Shown: positions 1 through 10,060 of the stretch, in pieces
Numbering within the stretch: the first letter of the stretch is position 1
How the letters are laid out: each line of letters begins with the position of its first letter
Made by a program: the position numbers and the translations under genes
Origin: Deltaproteobacteria bacterium
GTDB taxonomy: Bacteria; Myxococcota; B64-G9
Length of the DNA stretch: 12,273 nt
Direction: 5' to 3'
Assembly: GCA_019307065.1 (NCBI GenBank)
Contig: JAFDKH010000161.1
Span: forward strand, 1 to 12,273
The notes under the pieces: model-generated
Told to the model about the DNA's origin: nothing
What the model saw: the letters and a program-made list of their open reading frames with translations, nothing else
Database searches by the model: none

Positions 1-314
1 CCTCGGGCAAGGCCGTCATCCGGGCCGATAGCCTGCATATCCTCGACAGTGTGATCGACGTGCTGGTCAATAAACCGCGCATCAAAAAGATTCGCATCGA
101 GGGCCACACCGACAGCATGGGCTCGAACAGATCCAACATGTCCTTGAGCCAGAGACGGGCCGAAGCGGTGCGCGACTATATGTACCAGCAGGGAATATAC
201 GAAGGCCGCCTGACCGCTCAGGGCTTCGGCGAAGAAAAACCGATTGCGCCCAACAGTACCCGTCGGGGCCGGGCCCAGAATCGCCGAGTCGAATTTATTA
301 TCATCGAACAATAG
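1..314 (+). CDS. OmpA/MotB-family peptidoglycan-binding C-terminal domain protein; 5' end lies outside the window (reading frame begins at nt 3)
   Basis: In-frame translation from nt 3 gives SGKAVIRADSLHILDSVIDVLVNKPRIKKIRIEGHTDSMGSNRSNMSLSQRRAEAVRDYMYQQGIYEGRLTAQGFGEEKPIAPNSTRRGRAQNRRVEFIIIEQ*. The GHTD...G....N..LS.RRA..V...L.....R....G.GE..P......R..NRRVE pattern is the OmpA_C-like signature. There is no start codon before nt 51, so the M at 51 is internal. Confidence 0.8.
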   Translation, partial: SGKAVIRADSLHILDSVIDVLVNKPRIKKIRIEGHTDSMGSNRSNMSLSQRRAEAVRDYMYQQGIYEGRLTAQGFGEEKPIAPNSTRRGRAQNRRVEFIIIEQ

Positions 315-361: not shown

Positions 362-3300
362 CTACTTGGCTTGCTCGACCGACATCCCCTTGACGCGCTT
401 CTGAAAGAAGTTCATCGACTCGTCGGTGGGCTTGAGTAGCTCTCCGTCGATCACATCGTCGTCGAAATCGATAACGGTTTTCTTTTTATACTTAGGCGCG
501 GGTTGGGGCGGCCGGTCCTTGCCATCCAGATCGTCTTCGGACCCTTCAGTACCGCGGTAAAGACCGAATGAGCCGTTGTGCTGGGCGATTACGGTTACGG
601 TTCCCATGATATTTTCTGCGATGAAGATTCCGCGCAGGTCGGTTTTTCCGGCGATGAAGCGATCGTCGTCCGAGCCCTTGAGCTGAACCCGGGCGCCGGA
701 GATCGGCTTGCCGCGGTTGGTGCGCACGGTTACGCGTACCCGGCCCTCGTCGTGATCCTCGGTGACGTCGGTGGCCAGCGAGCCGTTGAGTGCCAGTGAA
801 TACAGCAGCTGGTGGCCCCCGCGCACCAGCAGCAAATATGCGCCCTTGCCGGGCAGGCGCAGCTTGTGCTTGATTTCGCGGGTCACCCCGATTTGTTTTG
901 GATAGCGGATAGTCTGATTCAAGACCGGACGAATTCCGGCCAGATTGATTTCAGTCAGGTCGCTCAAAGAACCCTTGAGTTGATACAACCTCATCGGGTC
1001 GACTCGATAGGCGCGTAGATTGATTCGTTCGAGATTGCGCATGGTCATCGTAAGGATCGGGCGCTGCCCGGCCGCAACCGAGACAATCTCGGGCACTACA
1101 AGTAGCTGGCGTTCAGATTCACGGATTGTCTCCCAGGCGTCGCGGAATCGGTCTTGTACCTGGCGATAGAGAGCCAGGGCCTGACTCATCTGACCGCGCG
1201 AGTGATGAATCTGGGCCATTATGTAACGGGCCATTTCGCGGCTTTCCTCATCGGGTGAATCTTTGGCGACTTGCTGGCAAAGTTTCAAAGAAGGTCCGTA
1301 CTGTCCCAGCTTGAAATGAGCGAAGGCCTTGAGATATGCCATGGCCGGTGCCAAATCCGATTCGGGATGCCGTTTGAGGCCGGTGTCACACCACTCGGCC
1401 GCCTGGCCCGCCCGGCCGCGTTCCAGCAGGGCTGAAGCCAGAGAATATATTGCCGGCGGGCCCTGGGGGTCGGTCGGGAAATAGCCCAGGTAGCGCGCCA
1501 TCAACCAGATGACTTCCTCGAGCAGGCCGGGACGATCGAAACCTTCGGGCTTGTCTCCCTGGCGGGCCTGATCGGCGCGGGCGAAAACAACCTGGCTGAA
1601 GGCGTAGGTCGCCTGAGCGGCCGGGCGGTTGTCGGGATAAGAGTTGAGTTGTTCTTTTAGCATGGCGATTGCCTCGGCCATTTCGTCTTCGGTCTCGAGA
1701 ATGCCGACGTTATGTACCTCGGACATAAAGCGCGCCTCGGCTACTCCACGGGCCAGCAGCAGGCCGGCTTCGTAGGCCTTGACCGTTCGGTAGGCCGCCT
1801 GGACCGGGGCGATTTTTGCAAATGGAATGACAAGATCGGGGTTCTTTTCTTTGGCCAGTTCGAAATATTTGACGATTCTCTGCTGATCGTTTTTATCGAT
1901 TGACGCGAACAATAGTTTGGCCAGAACATTGCGGGCGATATTTTCGTTCAGTTTGTAGTGGTTGTTGAGCGACTCGAGTTTCAAGATGCACAGCTCGGCA
2001 TCTTTCTCTTCAGCCGCCGCCAGGCCGACTAAGTACAATTCGTCGGGAGTCGGACGAACGTCGTCCAGGGTAGCGCTAGCCCCGTCGATAGTGAAAGCAG
2101 TCGAATCGGAGACTACCCGGGTCTTGGGATTGGCCAGGGATACCAGCCTGAGTGGCGGAAACTGATAGACTCCCGGGTTGATTGCTTGAAGTTGATACTG
2201 AACCTGCTGGTGATAGCCGGCCGAGGCCATGAAGAAAACCAGTTGGCGGCCGGCCTGCTGCATATGCGAGTGGTTGCCGCTCAACGAGCCGGGTACCAGC
2301 TCGAAACCGGGTGGCAGCCGATCGGATAAAACACAGTGATCGATGCGTGGGGCGAAATCACGCTGGATCTTGAGAGTCACCTTGATGCGCCGGGTAGCCG
2401 GAATGTGATCGATCTTGTTGACCCAGGTCTCTTCACCGGGGGCCAGGACGCTGAATCCAGCATTAATGTCATGGCCCTTGTACGGCAGGGGTACCGGTTC
2501 GATGGTTCTGGAAAGCTTGATCGGATCGTTTTTTGTATTTTCTTTGGCTTTTTTCCGATAGCCGCTCAGGGTGGCAGTGAAGAAGCAGCTGCCGCTGCCC
2601 TCCAGACTCAGTTCGATTTTGTTCTCGCCCGGCCTCAGAACTTGCGCCGCGACGTTGACTTGTTCGGTAGGGTTGCCGGCCTGGCCGCTGATTTGAACAG
2701 TTTTTACTTGTTGGCCGTTGACCGCAACTTTGACCCGGTAGCGTTGGCCAGATTTTTCGGCACCCAAAAGCCTTCGCAAGGCGGCCGAGACTGCCTCGGC
2801 TTCACGCGGAAATCTGAACCCGACAGCTTCGCCCTGGTCGAGCAGCCACTTGGCGCCTTTTTTAACCAGGGGATCGTTGGGGCGGGTAAGCGCCAGCAGT
2901 TCGAGCGCACGCGCCAGGTCGGCCGGTTCGGCTCCCCAGGTTGGCAGCCAGGCATATGCCCTCGGGCAGGGCACGTTGAATCGAACCTTGGCCATCAGGC
3001 TTTTAGCGACTTCGGCGGCTTTCTCGGGTCGTTTGAGGGCGTGCCAGGTCAGCCCCAGAAGCGCCTGGGCCCCCAGCGGGAGTGTGTTTCTCAAACGATG
3101 CAGACGGTGCAGGTGAACTACCGGGACGTGCTCTTTACCTTCGTGGGCCAAAGCATAGAGAATTGCAGCCCGCTGCATGAAGTCGTCGGGAGGCAGACCG
3201 GGCAGGCCGTTCTTGACGATTGTCAAGGCGCGCCCGTAACTTGCTTGCGGGAAACTCCAACTCAACTGACCGGCCAAGGGTTTGGCCCTGGCCAGGGCCC

Positions 3301-6300
3301 TGATTGCCCGGGCGGTGATTATCAAGCTTGTCGAACTCGAGCCCTGGCCCCAGCCCCAGCCGCCGTCTGCTCTCTGTACTAGAAGCAGATGGACCAATGC
3401 GCGCCGCAAGCGAGCTCTAACCATGCTGAGCATGGCCTGGTCGGCTTTTGGGTCGAGTAACTCGAGAATGTTCAGGGCCGCCAGGGCTTCTTCCGGGCGA
3501 TCGTTGAATAAGACCGGATCGAGCCGGCCGGCCAGAAATAGATGGGTCATGCGGGGGTCGAGCCGGATCAAAAGTTCAAGATCGCCGATCTCTTTGTCAA
3601 GAGTCAAAATTCGCGTGGCACTCCTGGTCAGCCGGCCGGAGACCGATACGTCCTCGCGAATACCGCGTGGTCGGACCGGCAGTTTACGCAGCAGTCTGTC
3701 GGCCAGATCTCCTGCGTCGGCCGTCAGCAGCAGCTCGAGTTTGGCGCCCGGAGCACTGTCGGGAATTTCGAGCGAGTCGAAAAGAACTTCGGCCGTCTGG
3801 GCCGCGGCTACCTTGGCCTGGCGCGAGATCTTACGGCCGGCAACAGTCAGCTCGAGCTTGACGCTCAGATCTTTCTTGCTTTCGTTGAACAAACGCGCCA
3901 GGGGCTGCAGACGATCACCTTCTTCAAGTTCGGGCGGGACTACCAATTCGGCCCAGAATTCTTGGGTCGCGATCAGTTCGGTTGTTTCTTCGCCCAGTTG
4001 AGTGTCCCTGGTTACACCCCGGGCGGTTACCTTCCAACTGGTGATCGAATCCGGCAGGCGGAAAGTAACCGAAGCGACTCCGTCGGGGCCGGTCCGAACC
4101 TCGGGAAAGAAAGTCGAGGTTTGATCGAAAGTTTTCCTGAGCGGGGCCATGCCCAATCGGGATGCCTGGCCCATTCGTATACTGGCCCGGCCGCCGCCTC
4201 CGCGGCCGTAGCCGCGGGTGCCCAGTCCGCCGTAACCCATGCCCGAGCCGGCCCCGCCCATATGGATGCTGGGTACGTTGGCCAGCCTGGCGAATTGTTC
4301 GGAGGCTTCTTCGGTCATTTCCTTTCGCCTGGCACTCAAGGCGGTCATCGCGGCTGATCCTTCGGTCTGAAGAATTTCAGCTTTTTCAATCTGGCTGGCC
4401 ATGGCTTCGGGAAACCTGAATGTATTCGAAGAGGTGGTGTAAACATTTCCTTCCGGGCGCAAGTAATGGAAAGTCGAGATCAGATCCGGCAGGTTTTCGG
4501 GGAAGATCTTGAGCAGGGCCTTGTCGACAACCGTAACGATCAAACGCGCGTCGACCGGTTTGTCGTCGAAGTCTTTGGCGATCAATGTCAGACTGACTTC
4601 GTCGCCGGGCTGGTAACGCATTTTGTCCGGGCGAATGGTGATTTTCAGCTTGCGGGCTACGCGCACCGAGCGCGAGGCCGAGTGGAACTTGTCGCCGTCC
4701 ATGGCGGCCGCGGCCAGCGTGAAATTGGGTACCAGCTTTTCAGTCATCGGAATGTCGAGGGTGTTGATGCCTTTGACGACTTTCAAAGTTCGATAGTCGA
4801 TGATCTGGTCGGTTTCGAAGGTCAGCAGGATGAGGGCTTTTTCCATGCGCGAGTTGATCGTCAAGCGCGCAGGTGTTCCCAGAGTTTGTTGATTGCGTGC
4901 CAGATCGAGAAAGAACCCGGGTTCTTCGACGCCGATTGTGTTCAGCCCGAGCTCGGCTGTAATCGGATGTTGGTTGAGGTCGTGGCCAAAAATCCTGACG
5001 ATGTGGCTGCCGCCTTCGGGTAAAGTGATCGGGACTCGCAGAATACCGTCGGCCGGAACAGACAGTTCTTTTTCGACGACTCTGACTTCACCGGAGGTTC
5101 TACTCAGGCGGCGCAAAACGGTCAGTCTAAGCCGGGCCGAGCGGGGCTTGTTGTCCGGGCCGGAAACTTTAATTGTCAGGTCGAAGGGCTGGCCGGCGAA
5201 GAGGTTTTTCTGTTCGACTTGTAAATCGACCTCATAACCTTGAACGGCCACCAGGGCCTGGGCGCTATGGATCAGATTGTGCTTGGGCAAGTTGACATTG
5301 ACTACCGCTACCTGGGTGGATTCGAACCCGCGGGTCGGGAAAGAAAAAGCGACCTCGCCCTTTTTATTGCTGGTGGCCTCTTTCCAGACCGATGAACTGG
5401 ACAGCCGGTACCCGATTTTCATAAAAGGCGCCGCCGAACCGTTACGGTGACGTACACGGATTGTGCCCTTGAGCAGGTCGCCTCTGAAGACGACTGCCTG
5501 GTCGAAATCGACTATCAGATCGAAGGGATTCAAGCGATAGGCCGAGACATTAAAACTGCCGCTGAAGGTCGCGCCCTTGTGGCCCCGCAGCGTGAAGTAG
5601 TAGCGCCCGGGGGTAGCGGCTTTGTCGAGAGTGAACTTGTGATTGAAGACTCCAAACTCATCGAGGCTGACTTTGGTTTTGACCAGTTCTATGCGGGCTG
5701 GTGAAAAAACCGAAAGCTCGCATTGGCTCTTGGCTTCGAAAGTCGGGTAGCCGGCCGGGTTCCAGCGGTCGCGCACGATCCCGGCTATGCCAACCGGGTT
5801 GCCCGGCCTATAAGCCGGGCGGTCGGAAAGCAAAAAACCTCGGGCGGTCCCGGCGGTTTCCGGTTGTCCGGTCTGCGGGTCAATTTGGTTCCAGGCTATC
5901 TGGTCGCCGCTGATTGCCAGGGCGCGCAGTCCTTCAAGATCTTCATCGGCAGGTAGGGCGGCGCTGAAGACGCCATCAGAACCGGTTTTGCCCTCGACGA
6001 CTATTTTTTTACCTGAGCCGATTACCACTCGGACACCCGGGTAGGGTTTGGTCTCTTTCAGATTCTGGCTGAAGACGAACAACCGCCCCGGAGTAGTCTT
6101 CATGATCATTCCCAGATCTGAAACGATGACTGCCGTGGTGGCCTCCATCTCTTTAGTGCTCAAATGAACCAGGTAGAGCCCCGGGTTTTTGATCCTCAAG
6201 GGAACCTTCTGAGTAATGCGCTCATATTTTTGAAATTTCTCGACCGGGACAGTCCAGGTCTGATCGGGTGTGCAAAGCGCGATATCGACATTGGTGACCT

Positions 6301-7942
6301 GATCCATCTCCAGGCGATCGCGGAAGAAGTCCTCGGCCTCGATCCGGTACAGGCGCATTTCGATCGCTTCGAGATTGCGGACGTGCCAGGTAAGCTCAGG
6401 AGTCACACCGATTCTGAAGGTCGGCGGAGATTCGACTACCAGGCTGGGTTCGTCCAGGGCCGCCAGGCGAGCGGCGGCCTGATAGCTTCCGCCCGGAGAT
6501 TTTGTGGCTTGCTTGTAGGCTTCCCTGGCTTTTACAAAATCGCGACGTTTCTCTTCGAACAGCAGGCCGGTCTGATAAAAACCGGCCGCGGCCAGCTTGT
6601 CTTTGGGAAATTTGCCGGTCAGCGTTGAAAAGAGTGTCAGAGCTTCTTTTACACTACCCAATTCAGCCTGAGCCTGGCCGGCATTCAGCAGGGCCTGAGG
6701 AGTTCGTGTTGCAGTTGGGTAGGTATTAGAAAATCCGGAAAAGAGTTCAGCCGCTGGTTTCCATTTCTTGTCATTGTAGGCCAGCAAGGCTTCATTCCAG
6801 GCCATGTCTTCGATGCCTTTGAGGGCCTGCAGCCAGTGCCCGTCCGAGGGATGTTCTTTCAAATAGCTGCGCCAGGCTTCTCCTGCTGCGCTGAACTTTT
6901 CCTGGGCGGCCAGACAGACGCCCAGGTGGTACCTGGCAGTGGCCAGGTTTTCTTCGGGTCCGTTGGCTGCGATGTACTCGTTCAGCGACTCTATGGCTTC
7001 GGCATGTCGGCCGGCATGAAAAGCCGCCATGGCCAGTTCCAGGCGGGCTTGTTCGACGCGTTTGTTCTTGGGGTAAGTTTCGATGAACTTGCGCAAAGCC
7101 GCCTGTCCCCAGATCAGATCAAAACCGCTCTTGGGTTTGGGCATCGAGTAGGTCCTGGTCAGCCCGAAGGCCGCCCTGGCGGCGTAGACCGTGCGGGCAT
7201 GTTCAGCCAATAGATCGCGCAAGTAACGCCTCGCAGCGACGCCGTTTTTGGCCTCGATAAAAGCTTCGGCGGCCAAGTACCTGGCTTCGGCCAGCCGGGG
7301 AGAGTCTTTGTATTTGTCGCAAAAGGCGACCAGGTGATTGGCTGCCTCGCCAAAGCGTTTTTGCTTGGACAGACAACGGGCGATTTTGATCTCGGTCTCT
7401 TCGTCCAGCTTGCCGCTAATGCCGGTTTCTAAAGCGGCCATATAAAACTGTTGAGCCCGGGCAGGTTCGGCGGCGTTCTTGCCTTCGGGCGGCTCGAGAT
7501 GTTCATCGCCCAGCAGAATGAAGCGGGCGGCGATTCGCTCGAGGCGTTGATTCGAAGTGAGGTTTGTAAGCGCTTTGGAAAAAAGCTCTTCGGCCGATTT
7601 GAAACGACCGGTTGCGGCCTGGCATTCGGCCATGCCAAAGGTCGCTTTTTGGGCAAGGTAAGATCCCTTTGGTGCTTTTTTCTTGGCGGCCGCGTAGGCA
7701 TTTTCTGCGGCTTTATAGCTTTTGGCCAGGTACAGCGCACGCCCCTTGGTGAGCAATGCCAGGCTGGCATGCTTTTTGGGGCCCGAGCGCAAGCCGTTCA
7801 AGATCGAGGCGGCCTTTGAGGTATCACCGCGAGCCATGGCCCGAAAAGCATCCTGAATCGGTCCGGCCTGAGAGTGCGCCGGAAGCGCCAGCAGCGTAGC
7901 TGCGAAAACCACAGATACAACAACCCTAAGTCCGTGCCGCAT
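362..7942 (-). CDS. Giant secreted alpha-2-macroglobulin-family protein (thioester-less) with N- and C-terminal TPR-like arrays and a C-terminal carboxypeptidase-regulatory-like beta-sandwich; 2526 aa
   Basis: 7.6-kb uninterrupted ORF. The start ATG at 7940-7942 is preceded by AAGGAGAG 6 nt upstream, and the ORF's first ATG at 8029 has no SD. N-terminus MRHGLRVVVSVVFAATLLALPAHS-QAG is a Sec signal peptide with no Cys. A2M-family motifs are read directly: SDRPAYRPGNPV (nt 5792-5824, A2M_N), FNVSAYRLNPFDLIVDFDQ (A2M_N_2), RLPDSITSWKVTA (nt 4034-4054, A2M domain PDSITTW motif), QRADGGWGWGQG (nt 3344-3367, TED-like alpha/alpha toroid). A C-terminal RBD/MG8-like segment reads DHCVLSDRLPPGFELV. There is no C-x-E-Q anywhere in the protein. 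Confidence 0.85.
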   Translation of the reverse strand: MRHGLRVVVSVVFAATLLALPAHSQAGPIQDAFRAMARGDTSKAASILNGLRSGPKKHASLALLTKGRALYLAKSYKAAENAYAAAKKKAPKGSYLAQKATFGMAECQAATGRFKSAEELFSKALTNLTSNQRLERIAARFILLGDEHLEPPEGKNAAEPARAQQFYMAALETGISGKLDEETEIKIARCLSKQKRFGEAANHLVAFCDKYKDSPRLAEARYLAAEAFIEAKNGVAARRYLRDLLAEHARTVYAARAAFGLTRTYSMPKPKSGFDLIWGQAALRKFIETYPKNKRVEQARLELAMAAFHAGRHAEAIESLNEYIAANGPEENLATARYHLGVCLAAQEKFSAAGEAWRSYLKEHPSDGHWLQALKGIEDMAWNEALLAYNDKKWKPAAELFSGFSNTYPTATRTPQALLNAGQAQAELGSVKEALTLFSTLTGKFPKDKLAAAGFYQTGLLFEEKRRDFVKAREAYKQATKSPGGSYQAAARLAALDEPSLVVESPPTFRIGVTPELTWHVRNLEAIEMRLYRIEAEDFFRDRLEMDQVTNVDIALCTPDQTWTVPVEKFQKYERITQKVPLRIKNPGLYLVHLSTKEMEATTAVIVSDLGMIMKTTPGRLFVFSQNLKETKPYPGVRVVIGSGKKIVVEGKTGSDGVFSAALPADEDLEGLRALAISGDQIAWNQIDPQTGQPETAGTARGFLLSDRPAYRPGNPVGIAGIVRDRWNPAGYPTFEAKSQCELSVFSPARIELVKTKVSLDEFGVFNHKFTLDKAATPGRYYFTLRGHKGATFSGSFNVSAYRLNPFDLIVDFDQAVVFRGDLLKGTIRVRHRNGSAAPFMKIGYRLSSSSVWKEATSNKKGEVAFSFPTRGFESTQVAVVNVNLPKHNLIHSAQALVAVQGYEVDLQVEQKNLFAGQPFDLTIKVSGPDNKPRSARLRLTVLRRLSRTSGEVRVVEKELSVPADGILRVPITLPEGGSHIVRIFGHDLNQHPITAELGLNTIGVEEPGFFLDLARNQQTLGTPARLTINSRMEKALILLTFETDQIIDYRTLKVVKGINTLDIPMTEKLVPNFTLAAAAMDGDKFHSASRSVRVARKLKITIRPDKMRYQPGDEVSLTLIAKDFDDKPVDARLIVTVVDKALLKIFPENLPDLISTFHYLRPEGNVYTTSSNTFRFPEAMASQIEKAEILQTEGSAAMTALSARRKEMTEEASEQFARLANVPSIHMGGAGSGMGYGGLGTRGYGRGGGGRASIRMGQASRLGMAPLRKTFDQTSTFFPEVRTGPDGVASVTFRLPDSITSWKVTARGVTRDTQLGEETTELIATQEFWAELVVPPELEEGDRLQPLARLFNESKKDLSVKLELTVAGRKISRQAKVAAAQTAEVLFDSLEIPDSAPGAKLELLLTADAGDLADRLLRKLPVRPRGIREDVSVSGRLTRSATRILTLDKEIGDLELLIRLDPRMTHLFLAGRLDPVLFNDRPEEALAALNILELLDPKADQAMLSMVRARLRRALVHLLLVQRADGGWGWGQGSSSTSLIITARAIRALARAKPLAGQLSWSFPQASYGRALTIVKNGLPGLPPDDFMQRAAILYALAHEGKEHVPVVHLHRLHRLRNTLPLGAQALLGLTWHALKRPEKAAEVAKSLMAKVRFNVPCPRAYAWLPTWGAEPADLARALELLALTRPNDPLVKKGAKWLLDQGEAVGFRFPREAEAVSAALRRLLGAEKSGQRYRVKVAVNGQQVKTVQISGQAGNPTEQVNVAAQVLRPGENKIELSLEGSGSCFFTATLSGYRKKAKENTKNDPIKLSRTIEPVPLPYKGHDINAGFSVLAPGEETWVNKIDHIPATRRIKVTLKIQRDFAPRIDHCVLSDRLPPGFELVPGSLSGNHSHMQQAGRQLVFFMASAGYHQQVQYQLQAINPGVYQFPPLRLVSLANPKTRVVSDSTAFTIDGASATLDDVRPTPDELYLVGLAAAEEKDAELCILKLESLNNHYKLNENIARNVLAKLLFASIDKNDQQRIVKYFELAKEKNPDLVIPFAKIAPVQAAYRTVKAYEAGLLLARGVAEARFMSEVHNVGILETEDEMAEAIAMLKEQLNSYPDNRPAAQATYAFSQVVFARADQARQGDKPEGFDRPGLLEEVIWLMARYLGYFPTDPQGPPAIYSLASALLERGRAGQAAEWCDTGLKRHPESDLAPAMAYLKAFAHFKLGQYGPSLKLCQQVAKDSPDEESREMARYIMAQIHHSRGQMSQALALYRQVQDRFRDAWETIRESERQLLVVPEIVSVAAGQRPILTMTMRNLERINLRAYRVDPMRLYQLKGSLSDLTEINLAGIRPVLNQTIRYPKQIGVTREIKHKLRLPGKGAYLLLVRGGHQLLYSLALNGSLATDVTEDHDEGRVRVTVRTNRGKPISGARVQLKGSDDDRFIAGKTDLRGIFIAENIMGTVTVIAQHNGSFGLYRGTEGSEDDLDGKDRPPQPAPKYKKKTVIDFDDDVIDGELLKPTDESMNFFQKRVKGMSVEQAK
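545..1117 (-). other. C-terminal beta-sandwich module (MG-like plus carboxypeptidase-regulatory-like domain)
   Basis: RVRVTVRTNRGKPISGARVQLKGSDDDRFIAGKTDLRGIFIAENIMGTVTVIAQHNGSF has the CarbopepD_reg / Cna-B-like pattern (G.pi.gA.V.l......tdadG.f......G.y.l). It is followed by a charged tail (nt 362-544). Confidence 0.45.
1130..2032 (-). other. C-terminal TPR-like helical array following the A2M receptor-binding-like domain
   Basis: Helical repeats: NIARNVLAKLLFASIDKNDQQRIVKYFELAKEKNP, AQATYAFSQVVFARADQARQGD, AMAYLKAFAHFKLGQYGPSLKLCQQVAKDSP, ARYIMAQIHHSRGQMSQALALYRQVQDRF. Confidence 0.5.
2750..3712 (-). other. TED-like alpha/alpha-toroid domain lacking the thioester motif
   Basis: Contains LLLVQRADGGWGWGQGSSSTSLIITARAIRALA. 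No Cys-x-Glu-Gln is present in this region or elsewhere in the protein; the only x-E-Q tripeptides are VEQ, SEQ and TEQ, none preceded by Cys. Confidence 0.55.
4133..4258 (-). repeat. Gly/Arg-rich low-complexity insert at the position expected for an A2M bait region
   Basis: Translation is GGAGSGMGYGGLGTRGYGRGGGGRASIRMGQASRLGMAPL. It lies immediately N-terminal to the A2M-domain PDSITSW motif. The nucleotide sequence is GC/GCC-rich. Confidence 0.6.
6455..7864 (-). other. N-terminal TPR-like helical repeat array of the giant protein (~470 aa)
   Basis: Repeated Ala/Leu/Tyr-rich helical pairs with TPR-like spacing, for example YLAKSYKAAENAYAAAKK, ARYLAAEAFIEAKNGVAARRYLRDLL, ARYHLGVCLAAQEKFSAAGEAWRSYLKEHP, AGFYQTGLLFEEKRRDFVKAREAYKQA. 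Assignment is by pattern only. Confidence 0.55.
7871..7942 (-). other. Signal peptide (type I, Sec) of the giant protein
   Basis: MRHGLRVVVSVVFAATLLALPAHS: positively charged n-region, hydrophobic core, A-x-S/A-x-A-like cleavage region. No lipobox Cys. Confidence 0.7.
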
Positions 7943-7948
7943 GATTCT

Positions 7949-7954
7949 CTCCTT
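7949..7954 (-). promoter_or_regulatory. Shine-Dalgarno (AAGGAG) for the giant gene
   Basis: Minus-strand reading is AAGGAGAGAATCATG, with 6 nt between the GGAG core and the ATG. Confidence 0.7.
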
Positions 7955-7976
7955 AAATTGGTTGCAAAACCTTAAT

Positions 7977-7982
7977 ATTATA
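7977..7982 (-). promoter_or_regulatory. Candidate -10 hexamer (TATAAT) of the giant gene promoter inside a 197-bp AT-rich island
   Basis: Minus-strand reading is ...CATCGTTGATCCGTATAATATTAAGG..., a perfect TATAAT about 35 nt upstream of the ATG. The nearby TTGATC sits at the wrong spacing for a -35, and the best spaced -35 candidate (TACGAA) is weak. The 7943-8139 gap is about 40% GC against about 60% for the window. Confidence 0.35.
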
Positions 7983-8139
7983 CGGATCAACGATGCATGT
8001 TCGTATGTACGCCTTGAGATTACTGACATATTCCCTCAGACACCTCAAATTAGGGAAGGTTCTCGACGGTGACTGTAAACAAATACATGACCAAAGTCAC
8101 TTCGACGCAGTCTTCCGGAATAACAGGGTTTTGTGTTCA

Positions 8140-8901
8140 TCAGGCCCGGGCCACAATGATCTGGGTCAGGCTCGAACCATCGAAGGGGTCATTTTTAAAA
8201 GAGCCCAGTTTTTCGATGATTGTCATTTCCGCCAAACGCAACAGTCGGGCGATCTCGGCCGGAGTAAACATACGCAACCGCAGTCGGCAGCTAAAAGATG
8301 GTGAATCGATGTTTTGAGGCAGGTAGGTAAAGACAGTTTCGCTGATTCCGGTTTTTTGATCGTAGGTATGCCGCTCGCGTTGTTGGTAGGTGACTGAGCG
8401 GACTTTGATGTTTCGGACCGGCAAACCCTGTGGTTCACTGTATGCGGCCAGGACTTCTGCTTTGGGATTAGTGATATCGAAAATCAAACGGCCGTCTTCG
8501 GCCAGGTGTTCTCGAATGCACATCAGGCATGTCAGCACGTCATCTTCGGAATGCAAATGCATCAGGCCGTTGAGCGGGATAATAATCACCCGATAGCGGT
8601 GGGGCAGGGAAAAGCCGCGCATGTTGCCTTCGTAGAAATTGGCAAGCTCGCAAATAGGCTTGCCCAGGCTCATCGCCCGGCTACGCGCGAAATCGAGCAT
8701 GGCCGCCGAGCCGTCCAGACCGTCTACTGACAGACCGGCATCGGCCAGATGAAATAAAACCCGTCCGGTGCCGCAGCCGAGTACCAGGGCCGGGCCGCCC
8801 TGCTCTTTGGCTCGCTCGCGGTACCAGCCGGTATCGGCCGATAGAAATGCATACTCGGCATTGTAGCGTTCGGGATCTGAATAGTAATCGACTTCCTGCA
8901 T
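8140..8901 (-). CDS. Class I SAM-dependent methyltransferase (253 aa)
   Basis: Motif I PALVLGCGTGRVLFHLADAG is the GxGxG SAM-binding loop, followed by the acidic LDGS (motif II-like) and Rossmann-fold spacing. The ORF stops 8 nt after the preceding gene's end. Substrate cannot be assigned from sequence. Confidence 0.75.
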   Translation of the reverse strand: MQEVDYYSDPERYNAEYAFLSADTGWYRERAKEQGGPALVLGCGTGRVLFHLADAGLSVDGLDGSAAMLDFARSRAMSLGKPICELANFYEGNMRGFSLPHRYRVIIIPLNGLMHLHSEDDVLTCLMCIREHLAEDGRLIFDITNPKAEVLAAYSEPQGLPVRNIKVRSVTYQQRERHTYDQKTGISETVFTYLPQNIDSPSFSCRLRLRMFTPAEIARLLRLAEMTIIEKLGSFKNDPFDGSSLTQIIVARA

Positions 8902-8908
8902 TTGGTAC

Positions 8909-10060
8909 CTAAATCTCGGCGGTCATCAGATAAATGGCAAAAGACGCCAGCCAGTGCTCACCGCCGTAGCCGCTTTCGAACATCTGGCGCAAGGCTTCGT
9001 GACGGTGCAGCCGGGCAAGTTTTGTAAAAACCGCCCGGCGTAAATCTGTTTGCGGTAAAGCTATGGCAAGGCCCTCAAAGCACCAGGCCCGTTGCAGAGC
9101 CAGGCCGATCAAATGACCGATCTTGGGGTCTTCTAAGTCTTTTACTTCTACGGCTTTACGCAGCGGCGCGAACTGGTCCGAGTCTAGGGCCGGCAGGAAG
9201 TCGTCCAGCCATTTGATGAATTCGACCGGCGACAAAACCCGCCGCATCAGATCGGCCTCAGCCAGGCAGGGCGATATAAAATCTTCGCCGGATGGCTCGT
9301 ATGCGGTCGGACAGGCCCGATCGTCTTTGAAAAAATCCAGCGCGCGGCGCTCGATCGCGCGGCCGAGTTTTTGATTGCCGACGGCCCGGGCGTAATCCAG
9401 GGCATGCACCAGGGCGAAAGCCGTGTTCGAATGAGTGCCTTCCCGGACCGGGACACTCAGCTTGTCGAGATAGTCGGTGATACGGCCGGCTAAAAAATCG
9501 GCCAACGGTTTTAGGGCTGCGGCCCATTGCCTGGCGTCGGTGTCGTCGAAGGTGTGCAGTTCGCAGGCCAGGCGCAACAGCCAACCCCAGCCATAGGGCC
9601 TTTCGAAAGTACGATTGCGGTCGAGCTTGAAATAGGCCAGCTCGGCCTCGAGTTTTTCGGCAGTCAAGCGAGCGCCTAGTTTTTTACGAATGGCTTGGGC
9701 CTCGGGCAGATCGGGGAATGTTTTCAAGAGACGTATAAGCGCCCAGTGCCCGTGGACCGCCGAGTGCCAGTCGAAACAGCCATAAAAGGCCGGGCTCAGT
9801 TTTCTGGGGGGCAGCACGGTCTGATCGCCGTCCAATATATTCGAGGGCTTGTTGGGGTACTCGCGATCGATACAACCCAGTGACAGTCCGGCAAAGCGCG
9901 AGGCCAGTTTTTGATCGAGTTTCAATTCGCCTTTATCGGGCAAGCTATTTTGCAGCTGTTCGAGGCCGGCGGTTTTGGCGGCCGGTTTAGACGGCCTGCC
10001 CTGGCAAGCGCAGCCCAAGACCGTCAAAAACGATAAACCGAGCCAGGCGATTGATCTCAT
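8909..10060 (-). CDS. Conserved hypothetical lipoprotein, DUF2891-like (383 aa)
   Basis: N-terminus MRSIAWLGLSFLTVLGCAC has a lipobox (VLGC). The internal motif FYGCFDWHSAVHGHWALIRLL matches my memory of the DUF2891 (PF11199) signature, but I cannot verify that here. No convincing SD precedes the ATG. Confidence 0.6.
   Translation of the reverse strand: MRSIAWLGLSFLTVLGCACQGRPSKPAAKTAGLEQLQNSLPDKGELKLDQKLASRFAGLSLGCIDREYPNKPSNILDGDQTVLPPRKLSPAFYGCFDWHSAVHGHWALIRLLKTFPDLPEAQAIRKKLGARLTAEKLEAELAYFKLDRNRTFERPYGWGWLLRLACELHTFDDTDARQWAAALKPLADFLAGRITDYLDKLSVPVREGTHSNTAFALVHALDYARAVGNQKLGRAIERRALDFFKDDRACPTAYEPSGEDFISPCLAEADLMRRVLSPVEFIKWLDDFLPALDSDQFAPLRKAVEVKDLEDPKIGHLIGLALQRAWCFEGLAIALPQTDLRRAVFTKLARLHRHEALRQMFESGYGGEHWLASFAIYLMTAEI

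Follow-up and report, generated by a model that had tools for sequence, protein, structure and literature searches.

Can a protein built on the α2-macroglobulin (A2M) plan still act on proteases once its thioester is gone, and what is a Gly-rich, low-complexity run doing at the place where its bait belongs? These questions are raised by a stretch of 12,273 nucleotides from a Deltaproteobacteria bacterium of the Myxococcota (contig JAFDKH010000161.1; the whole stretch is called the window here), which is dominated by a single minus-strand open reading frame (ORF; 362..8029, 2555 codons from the first in-frame ATG) encoding an A2M core flanked by two tetratricopeptide repeat (TPR) arrays. Thioester-less A2Ms as such are known already and hence are no surprise; what is new is an independently thioester-less lineage in an undescribed, TPR-fused A2M family with a conserved Gly-rich bait. 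Residues are numbered from the first ATG (8029), such that window positions 2750-4267 (minus strand) correspond to aa 1255-1760. Translation likely starts at M30 (ATG 7942), because an AAGGAG ribosome-binding site lies 7 nt upstream and the resulting length of 2526 aa fits that of the homologues (2473-2527 aa). A preliminary description of this DNA was right in giving 2526 aa, which counts from M30, but its "aa 1255-1300" counts from the upstream ATG (8029), and two numbering systems had thus been mixed.

The same description reported that no Cys-x-Glu-Gln (CxEQ) occurs in the protein, and this was borne out: C-x-E-Q is absent from the protein and from all six reading frames of the window. Without recourse to an alignment, it can also be seen that there is no cysteine between aa 771 and 1687; this stretch takes in the bait, the macroglobulin-like (MG) domain MG7, the first half of the CUB domain and two thirds of the thioester-containing domain (TED). 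The alignment with ECAM and YfaS that had been proposed as a check of the thioester position showed that it is indeed substituted. In a profile of the thioester-less members aligned with human A2M, C-G-E-Q stands opposite R1511-P-E-E1514, and in MAFFT alignments with CxEQ-bearing relatives, ECAM (CLEQ at 1187) and YfaS, which show a short deletion at this point, CVEQ/CLEQ falls on FNDRPEE (aa 1508-1514). In the AlphaFold model, the first TED helix begins at P1512, where the alignments put the CxEQ of thioester-bearing proteins. Because the thioester Cys and Gln are both gone, covalent capture is impossible.

In ECAM and SaA2M, two motifs of the C-terminal MG domain, RDDR and ExMY, bury the thioester (PMC4498604). 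In our alignment, the RDDR columns are occupied by QAGRQ (window 2243-2257) and the ExMY columns by SLANP (window 2126-2140). All of the CxEQ-bearing relatives shown in the alignment keep "MY" and a DDR/DER-like motif, and every thioester-less protein, YfaS included, is without both. Since the missing shielding motifs are a second, independent signature, the loss of the thioester is old and real. The 26 closest clade members are all without CxEQ. Based on the aligned sequences, we conclude that loss of the thioester is accompanied by relaxation of the shielding apparatus.

Identification of the core as an A2M depended on family-level comparison. A phmmer search of the PDB with the single protein matched human A2M alone, and weakly, and missed ECAM; a family profile was therefore used, which matched ECAM and SaA2M at E ~1e-88 and also matched squalene-cyclase C-domains over the DGGW repeat of the TED. 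Pfam placed TPR at aa 60-520, bMG3 at 636-710, MG2 at 730-828, MG4 at 855-927 and A2M_BRD at 1049-1174, followed by A2M at aa 1307-1394, a weak bMG10 at 1880-1964, TPR at 2186-2300 and a weak CarboxypepD_reg-type sandwich at 2431-2486. Two AlphaFold models, both built on family alignments, covered aa 500-1200 and aa 1040-1990. The first, with a predicted local distance difference test score (pLDDT) of 89, shows the final TPR helices and then about six beta-sandwich domains, and in Foldseek it superposes on the C3/C5 beta chains (MG1-MG6; template modelling (TM) score ~0.55-0.60) and on ECAM. The second (pLDDT 78) shows, in order, the bait-bearing MG domain, a low-confidence linker, two beta domains, a helical domain and a beta region at aa 1763-1982. 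The helical domain (aa 1494-1754) has some 13 helices with pLDDT mostly 85-95, in keeping with the earlier statement that a TED-like domain is retained; the Pfam TED model gave no score on it. The top Foldseek matches were native SaA2M, CD109 and ECAM (E ~1e-39; Foldseek also gave E = 1e-26), and the native forms of these three gave higher TM scores than the protease-activated forms. The number of MG domains that precede the bait, about six, was taken from secondary-structure boundaries in the AlphaFold model and is approximate. The defining elements of the A2M/C3 superfamily fold, namely a ring of MG domains, a helical TED inserted in a CUB domain, plus an MG domain at the C-terminus, were thus all found, and the models indicate that the core is a complete A2M, with MG ring, bait, MG7, CUB/TED and C-terminal MG.

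The regions around the core are related to one another. The segment from aa ~310 to 690 (window 5960-7100) matches that from aa ~2122 to 2471 (617-1665), both on the minus strand (BLASTP E = 3e-9, 21% identity), and the duplicated module consists of a TPR array and the first two beta-sandwiches (RNLEAIEMRLYRIE...GKTGSDGVF in the N-terminal copy and RNLERINLRAYRVD...GKTDLRGIF in the C-terminal copy). The protein can therefore be described as [TPR-MG-MG]-A2M core-[TPR-MG-MG]. The N-terminal TPR array matched the NCBIfam model TIGR02795 (tol_pal_ybgF) over four stretches at 121 bits, above the cut-off of 90. By its sequence, the N-terminal segment MRHGLRVVVSVVFAATLLALPAHS resembles a Sec signal peptide, and it has no lipobox cysteine.

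We next consider to which class of A2M the protein belongs. Bacterial A2Ms have been sorted into two types, of which type II comprises MagD/YfaS (PMC5764988), and the preliminary description had placed the protein in this YfaS/MagD-like class. The type II features of a missing CxEQ and a retained bait region are present; the operon and the common descent of that class are not. A representative search showed that proteins in which TPR arrays flank the A2M core on both sides and the bait linker is Gly-rich form a large family (10,560 representatives with E <= 1e-3, of which 645 reach E <= 1e-30) with lengths of 2400-2900 aa, the top 150 being mostly 2500-2900 aa, and distant members of the same architecture (P0023, P0024 and P0029-P0032) carry YPYGCVEQT. 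In a neighbor-joining tree of 49 cores (1316 columns, 100 bootstraps; a crude method), the thioester-less clade was monophyletic in 100 of 100 replicates and sister to YfaS in only one, and it formed an exact clade with the six CxEQ-bearing TPR-A2Ms in 47. The assignment to the YfaS/MagD-like class was thus not upheld, given this tree, the CxEQ-bearing TPR-A2M relatives, the different dead site and the lack of mag/yfa genes. The tree and alignments argue that the thioester was lost a second time, separately from the MagD/YfaS class, inside the TPR-A2M-TPR family. This family constitutes a large unstudied third architecture beside the ECAM-like and MagD/YfaS-like types. A search of the literature on Gly-rich bacterial baits, TPR-A2M fusions and myxobacterial A2Ms found nothing relevant, which, owing to incomplete coverage, is weak evidence of novelty.

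The likeness to the type I proteins ECAM/YfhM and SaA2M lies in the best profile and fold matches, in the order of MG ring, bait within an MG domain, CUB/TED and C-terminal MG, in the disordered bait, and in a periplasmic location, which is predicted here. Unlike those proteins, however, the protein studied here has no CxEQ, RDDR or ExMY, its signal peptide is without the lipobox Cys that ECAM possesses, and its gene has no pbpC neighbor, whereas type I genes adjoin pbpC. Its bait is preceded by only about six MG domains, whereas the bait of ECAM and SaA2M lies in MG8 (for ECAM, PMC4498604), and with two TPR arrays and extra C-terminal domains it is about 900 aa longer. The N-terminal TPR array stands where the type I proteins have two additional N-terminal MG domains. 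With type II it shares the absence of a thioester, the retention of bait region and TED, and a signal peptide without a lipoprotein anchor. It differs in lineage, its nearest relatives being CxEQ-bearing TPR-A2Ms, in its dead site (FNDRPEE, compared with GGVIN in YfaS) and in its bait, which in MagD/YfaS is of the NRSER type and not Gly-rich; MagD/YfaS also lack TPR arrays and are encoded in a six-gene mag/yfa operon (MagA, B, C, E and F; YfaA, T, Q and P), which is absent here. In tblastn searches, YfaA, YfaT, YfaQ and YfaP (the MagA/B/E/F partners) found no homologue in the window or in 16 related loci, 306 kb in total, and PbpC homologues were absent from the same DNA. The eukaryotic A2M/C3 proteins (human A2M, A2ML1, CD109 and the thioester-less C5) resemble it in the eight-MG core with the bait in MG6, in the alignment of the Gly-rich run with the human bait, and in the fit of the N-terminal half to the C3/C5 beta chains; identity is only ~12-16%, TPR fusions are absent from the eukaryotic proteins, the thioester is absent here, and no receptor-binding function can be inferred. 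CpoB/YbgF is matched by the N-terminal TPR array, both above the TIGR02795 cut-off and in the CpoB and YbgF structures, but is a stand-alone 26-kDa protein encoded in the tol-pal operon, whereas here the array is fused to an A2M. According to its annotation, CpoB coordinates cell division in the Tol-Pal system, and the CpoB-like module is here part of the A2M itself.

The preliminary description had singled out a Gly-rich 40-aa insert at the bait position, and several lines of evidence agree with this placement. The run GGAGSGMGYGGLGTRGYGRGGGGRASIRMGQASRLGMAPL (GGAGSG...GMAPL; aa 1258-1297, window 4139-4258) holds 16 Gly, compared with a mean of 8.3 and a maximum of 12 in the richest 40-aa window of 2000 shuffles of the protein and with 7 in the richest window outside the run. 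On either side of it are the Pfam domains A2M_BRD (aa 1049-1174) and A2M (aa 1307-1394), and it ends 28 aa ahead of PDSITSWKV (aa 1326). In a profile alignment, the Gly-rich consensus aligns over the human A2M bait GLRVGFYESDVMGRGHARLVHVEEPHT, with a conserved R-x-x-F-x-E-T next in both; the ECAM HMM alignment resumes directly after the disordered ECAM bait, R923-L942, and MAFFT placed the run opposite ECAM GQGRLAALRFGGDGDELKRGGKPP. We conclude from these alignments that the Gly-rich run sits at the bait position. Arg and Met, in which the segment had been called rich, stand at 1.7 and 4.2 times the protein average; there is no acidic residue, and the net charge is +5. As for its flexibility, the disorder check that had been suggested showed a linker of low confidence throughout, in which pLDDT drops under 50 for aa 1189-1225 and for aa 1246-1293. 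The linker contains a single long helix (aa 1215-1251), and over the Gly-rich run the values are 22-24, such that the loop is predicted to be disordered. The hallmark of the protease-inhibitor branch of the superfamily, a flexible bait within the MG domain ahead of MG7, is thus present as a predicted feature.

Is a Gly-rich bait peculiar to this protein? It had been called unlike typical bait sequences, and this was not supported. The bait interval could be aligned in 177 relatives, 145 without CxEQ and 32 with it; the median maximum was 9 Gly per 30 aa in both groups, and at least 10 Gly per 30 aa were present in 47% of the CxEQ-less and 44% of the CxEQ-bearing proteins. For 119 of the 177, the window of highest Gly content anywhere in the protein lies in the bait linker, and thioester-bearing and thioester-less proteins are alike in this. 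In these windows, Gly accounts for 42% of residues (5.7-fold enrichment) and Met is enriched 2.4-fold; Arg is not enriched, and Asp/Glu are reduced to 0.3-0.4-fold. ECAM likewise has its richest 30-aa Gly window in its own bait (aa 929-958, 8 Gly), and the YfaS bait has 2 Gly. Based on the aligned baits, Gly-rich baits are the norm in the large TPR-A2M-TPR family, with or without a thioester, and therefore link the protein to the ECAM-like side and not to MagD/YfaS, the bait of which is ANRSERG or ATNRSERR.

Within its close subfamily, the linker is conserved in sequence and not only in composition. The subfamily, recognized by EGSAAM[AT]AL, was found only in 14 species-level metagenome-assembled genomes labelled Myxococcota, Myxococcales or "Deltaproteobacteria", which marks the source of the window as an uncultured myxobacterium, and these genomes and the window make up a 15-species set. 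Across it, a helix motif, E-x-A-E-V-x-E-x-E-G-S-A-A-M-A-A-L-x-x-R-R, is retained, with EGSAAM[AT]AL nearly invariant, as is a Gly core, G-x-G-G-L-G-x-x-G-x-G-x-G-G-G-G. The conserved Gly positions are encoded by GGC, GGA, GGT and GGG in the different species, and such synonymous change is a signature of selection on the protein. We considered a DNA-level origin of the run by repeat or slippage and rejected it, given this variation and the lack of any DNA tandem repeat in the run. Twelve aligned sequences that are 37-57% identical gave a mean pairwise identity of 0.55 in the helix and 0.53 in the Gly core, compared with 0.44 over the core as a whole and 0.45 in the TED. The bait is usually the most variable part of an A2M, and a conserved linker is therefore atypical. 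The freely evolving, promiscuous bait that the preliminary description implied does not fit these values, since the Gly core and the preceding helix are conserved as much as or more than the folded domains. We also asked whether ECAM EGQGRLAAL is a homologue of the EGSAAMTAL helix and rejected this, as an HMM of the subfamily linker gave no ECAM match and shuffled controls reached up to 4 bits.

What might such a protein do? The reading that we favor is a Sec-exported, envelope-associated, non-covalent, bait-triggered protease trap, modelled on MagD, which lacks a thioester, is cut in its bait and holds the protease non-covalently (PMC5764988). Non-covalent trapping has been shown by experiment for MagD alone. 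Whereas the architecture, the thioester loss, and the position, predicted disorder and conservation of the loop are well supported, we infer the cleavage, trapping, localization and partners described next. A protease that reaches the periplasm would cut the exposed, basic, Met-containing, 40% Gly loop that lies behind the conserved charged helix; the MG ring and the TED arm would rearrange after cleavage, by analogy with MagD; and the protease would then be retained by non-covalent or steric means. Together with the conserved OmpA-domain neighbor, the TPR arrays would position the trap at the Tol-Pal/peptidoglycan layer, and the fusion to a CpoB/YbgF-type TPR array, together with a peptidoglycan-binding neighbor, hints at envelope positioning of such traps.

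Several observations weigh against this proposal. Inhibition by A2ML1 is reported to rely on covalent binding (PMC9156758), a thioester-inactive SaA2M failed to trap protease (PMC5764988), and the monomeric A2Ms studied so far mostly require the thioester. The cleaved ECAM bait docks on RDDR and ExMY to trigger the conformational change (PMC4498604), and because both motifs are lost here, an ECAM-type trigger cannot be assumed. A linker identity of 0.53-0.55, compared with 0.44 overall, is unlike a broad-spectrum, fast-evolving bait; moreover, the window is without a protease gene, and protease neighbors were found in two relatives only. Owing to the thioester requirement of A2ML1 and SaA2M, the lost docking surface and the conserved bait, we hold the trap proposal with about as much doubt as confidence.

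Some of the same observations would suit an A2M fold that does not inhibit proteases but has taken on a new role as a scaffold, spacer or conformational switch of the envelope. Its TPR arrays and MG domains would form a large periplasmic assembly with the OmpA-domain neighbor, and the helix and Gly loop would be a hinge or a specific binding element instead of a substrate. The loss of both the thioester and the shielding motifs is consistent with this, position-specific conservation of the linker with synonymous Gly codons fits a binding or hinge element, the two TPR arrays and the duplicated TPR-MG-MG module suggest a platform for protein-protein interactions, the peptidoglycan-binding neighbor is conserved, and there is weak similarity to the gliding-motility proteins CglF and GltE. 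However, the CglF and GltE matches are far under the cut-offs, the full domain set of a trap is present in a native-like arrangement with a disordered loop at the canonical bait site, and MagD shows that trapping can outlast thioester loss. In addition, thioester-bearing relatives of the same architecture have similar Gly-rich loops, suggesting that the role of the loop predates the loss of the thioester. We regard the repurposed scaffold as rather unlikely, although it deserves serious attention. The protein might instead be a dedicated decoy for one protease class, the Gly loop mimicking a substrate of enzymes that cleave Gly-Gly or Gly-X bonds (M23 proteases of the lysostaphin/LasA/beta-lytic type, or C1 glycyl endopeptidases), either the bacterium's own or those of competitors. 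M23 enzymes and glycyl endopeptidase prefer Gly. The strong conservation of the Gly motif itself and not merely of composition, the family-wide occurrence of Gly-rich baits, and the presence of a Peptidase_C1 gene upstream of P0005 and a Peptidase_C25 gene upstream of P0023 would accord with a decoy, but the protease adjacency is limited to these two among seven contexts, with none in the window, and the loop also holds Arg, Met, Tyr and Leu, which suit many proteases. A decoy of this kind seems improbable to us. Finally, a sequencing or assembly error that hides a CxEQ motif had been judged unlikely from the intact ORF, and the present data make this, and a misassembly of low-complexity DNA that created the Gly-rich run, exceedingly so: no tandem repeat was found, no frame encodes CxEQ, and RDDR and ExMY were lost along with the thioester. 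The same condition recurs in 26 members of the clade and in the genomes of 14 species, and a local assembly error is excluded because an independent metagenome contig (L059) encodes a 100% identical 1303-aa fragment.

Returning to the proposed trap, sister proteins with and without CxEQ on one scaffold provide a natural comparison set for thioester-free action of a monomeric A2M. The question of how a monomer acts without covalent capture was left by MagD and is sharpened by the thioester-dependent A2ML1 and SaA2M; the conserved Gly-rich bait offers a specific point at which it can readily be tested. One could envisage, as a broad and speculative extension that is probably not correct as a whole, that the TPR-A2M-TPR proteins are a third, undescribed class of bacterial A2M that serves as an envelope-tethered guard, in which the conserved Gly-rich loop would be a specific decoy or trigger instead of a promiscuous bait, for example against the Gly-Gly/Gly-X bacteriolytic proteases used in microbial predation. 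A Myxococcota-centred lineage within that class would then have given up covalent capture altogether; since the RDDR/ExMY surface on which the cleaved bait docks has been lost too, it would rely on another mode of activation.

The coordinates of the features discussed above and of the neighboring genes are collected in the table.

Table. Features of the A2M gene and its neighbors in the 12,273-nt window; residues are numbered from the ATG at 8029.
Feature	Window position	Strand	Residues	Basis or remark
3' end of convergent CarboxypepD_reg/PEGA/OmpA-domain gene	1..314	+		Pfam OmpA; conserved neighbor
Whole A2M gene (TPR array, A2M core, TPR array, two beta-sandwiches, tail)	362..7942	-	2526 aa from M30	
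Charged C-terminal tail with TVIDFDDDVIDGELLKP	365..544	-		Weak NCBIfam gliding_CglF match
Two C-terminal beta-sandwich domains, paralogous to the first two MG domains	545..1039	-	2331-2495	Weak Pfam CarboxypepD_reg; BLASTP
C-terminal TPR array	1040..2062	-	1990-2330	Pfam TPR_14 and ANAPC3; duplication of N-terminal module
Second CUB half and C-terminal MG domain	2084..2743	-	1763-1982	Weak Pfam bMG10; AlphaFold strands; motif columns
TED-like alpha/alpha toroid, including QRADGGWGWGQG	2768..3550	-	1494-1754	AlphaFold helices; Foldseek SaA2M, ECAM, CD109
Degenerate thioester site FNDRPEE	3488..3508	-	1508-1514	HMM and MAFFT alignments; start of TED helix
Beta domain before TED, putative first CUB half	3557..3847	-	1395-1491	AlphaFold strands; CUB assignment inferred from position in A2M/C3 architecture
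Second half of bait-bearing MG domain and MG7 (LRKTF...PDSITSWKV)	3848..4138	-	1298-1394	Pfam A2M, E = 1e-14; alignment to human A2M
Gly-rich segment, predicted disordered	4139..4258	-	1258-1297	Gly count; pLDDT; conservation
Bait linker within sixth MG domain	4139..4447	-	1195-1297	Between Pfam A2M_BRD and A2M; low pLDDT; alignment with human A2M bait
Conserved bait-linker helix EKAEILQTEGSAAMTALSARRKEMTE	4277..4387	-	1215-1251	Predicted helix, low to moderate confidence
Six MG beta-sandwich domains, the last bait-bearing	4448..6445	-	529-1194	Pfam bMG3, MG2, MG4, A2M_BRD; AlphaFold; Foldseek
N-terminal TPR array, CpoB/YbgF-like	6449..7867	-	55-527	Pfam TPR families; NCBIfam TIGR02795; PDB CpoB and YbgF matches
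Probable Sec-type signal peptide MRHGLRVVVSVVFAATLLALPAHS	7868..7942	-		Read from sequence; without lipobox Cys
Class I SAM-dependent methyltransferase	8140..8901	-		Directly upstream, same strand; Pfam Methyltransf_25
DUF2891 protein	8909-10060	-		Pfam E = 1e-130; lipoprotein-like N-terminus LTVLGCACQG

Of the neighboring genes, the one encoding the OmpA-domain protein is conserved: 11 of 14 related Myxococcota genomes have it downstream of the A2M gene, and so does the identical contig L059. Its product is about 690 aa long and combines a pair of CarboxypepD_reg domains with a PEGA domain and, at its C-terminus, a peptidoglycan-binding OmpA domain (L001 17601-19685; L059 3962-5878), and it is a candidate partner of the A2M. 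The methyltransferase gene occupies the same position in 5 of the 14 genomes, and a link to the A2M gene is possible. Its product scored 80 bits against a daptide-type RiPP (ribosomally synthesized and post-translationally modified peptide) methyltransferase model with a cut-off of 175. The idea that it modifies the RG-rich loop was discarded as pure speculation, as the protein is a generic class I enzyme with sub-threshold daptide similarity. The DUF2891 gene was not found beside the A2M gene in any related locus searched.

Protease genes were sought in seven contig contexts (L001, L002/L003, L006, L007, L008, L059 and the window). A Peptidase_C1 (papain family) gene with a P_proprotein domain lies directly upstream of the thioester-less closest relative, P0005, and a Peptidase_C25 (gingipain family) gene directly upstream of the thioester-bearing P0023; the upstream secreted cysteine-protease genes of the relatives are at L006 7871-9841, L002 8438-9922 and L003 5771-7309. 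Protease adjacency as a general rule was rejected, since it was seen for these two proteins only and not in the window or at the P0001, P0002 or P0004 loci. Loci L009-L022, which were probed with the P0005 C1 and P0023 C25 sequences only, gave two weak partial matches.

Scans of the window for promoters and terminators, tRNA and Rfam families gave nothing informative, and no sigma-70-like promoter was found in it (4.4 in shuffles). Terminator-like hairpins numbered 29 in the window, compared with 15.4 +/- 4.4 in shuffles; this excess is probably compositional, because most of the hairpins lie inside the large ORF. The motif TVIDFDDDVIDGELLKP in the charged tail (aa 2518-2534, window 428-478, minus strand) gave a weak match to the NCBIfam model of CglF, a Myxococcus gliding protein (26.5 bits, cut-off 90), and a similar motif, D-F-E-D-D-x-I-E-G-x-L, is present in the close-homologue consensus.

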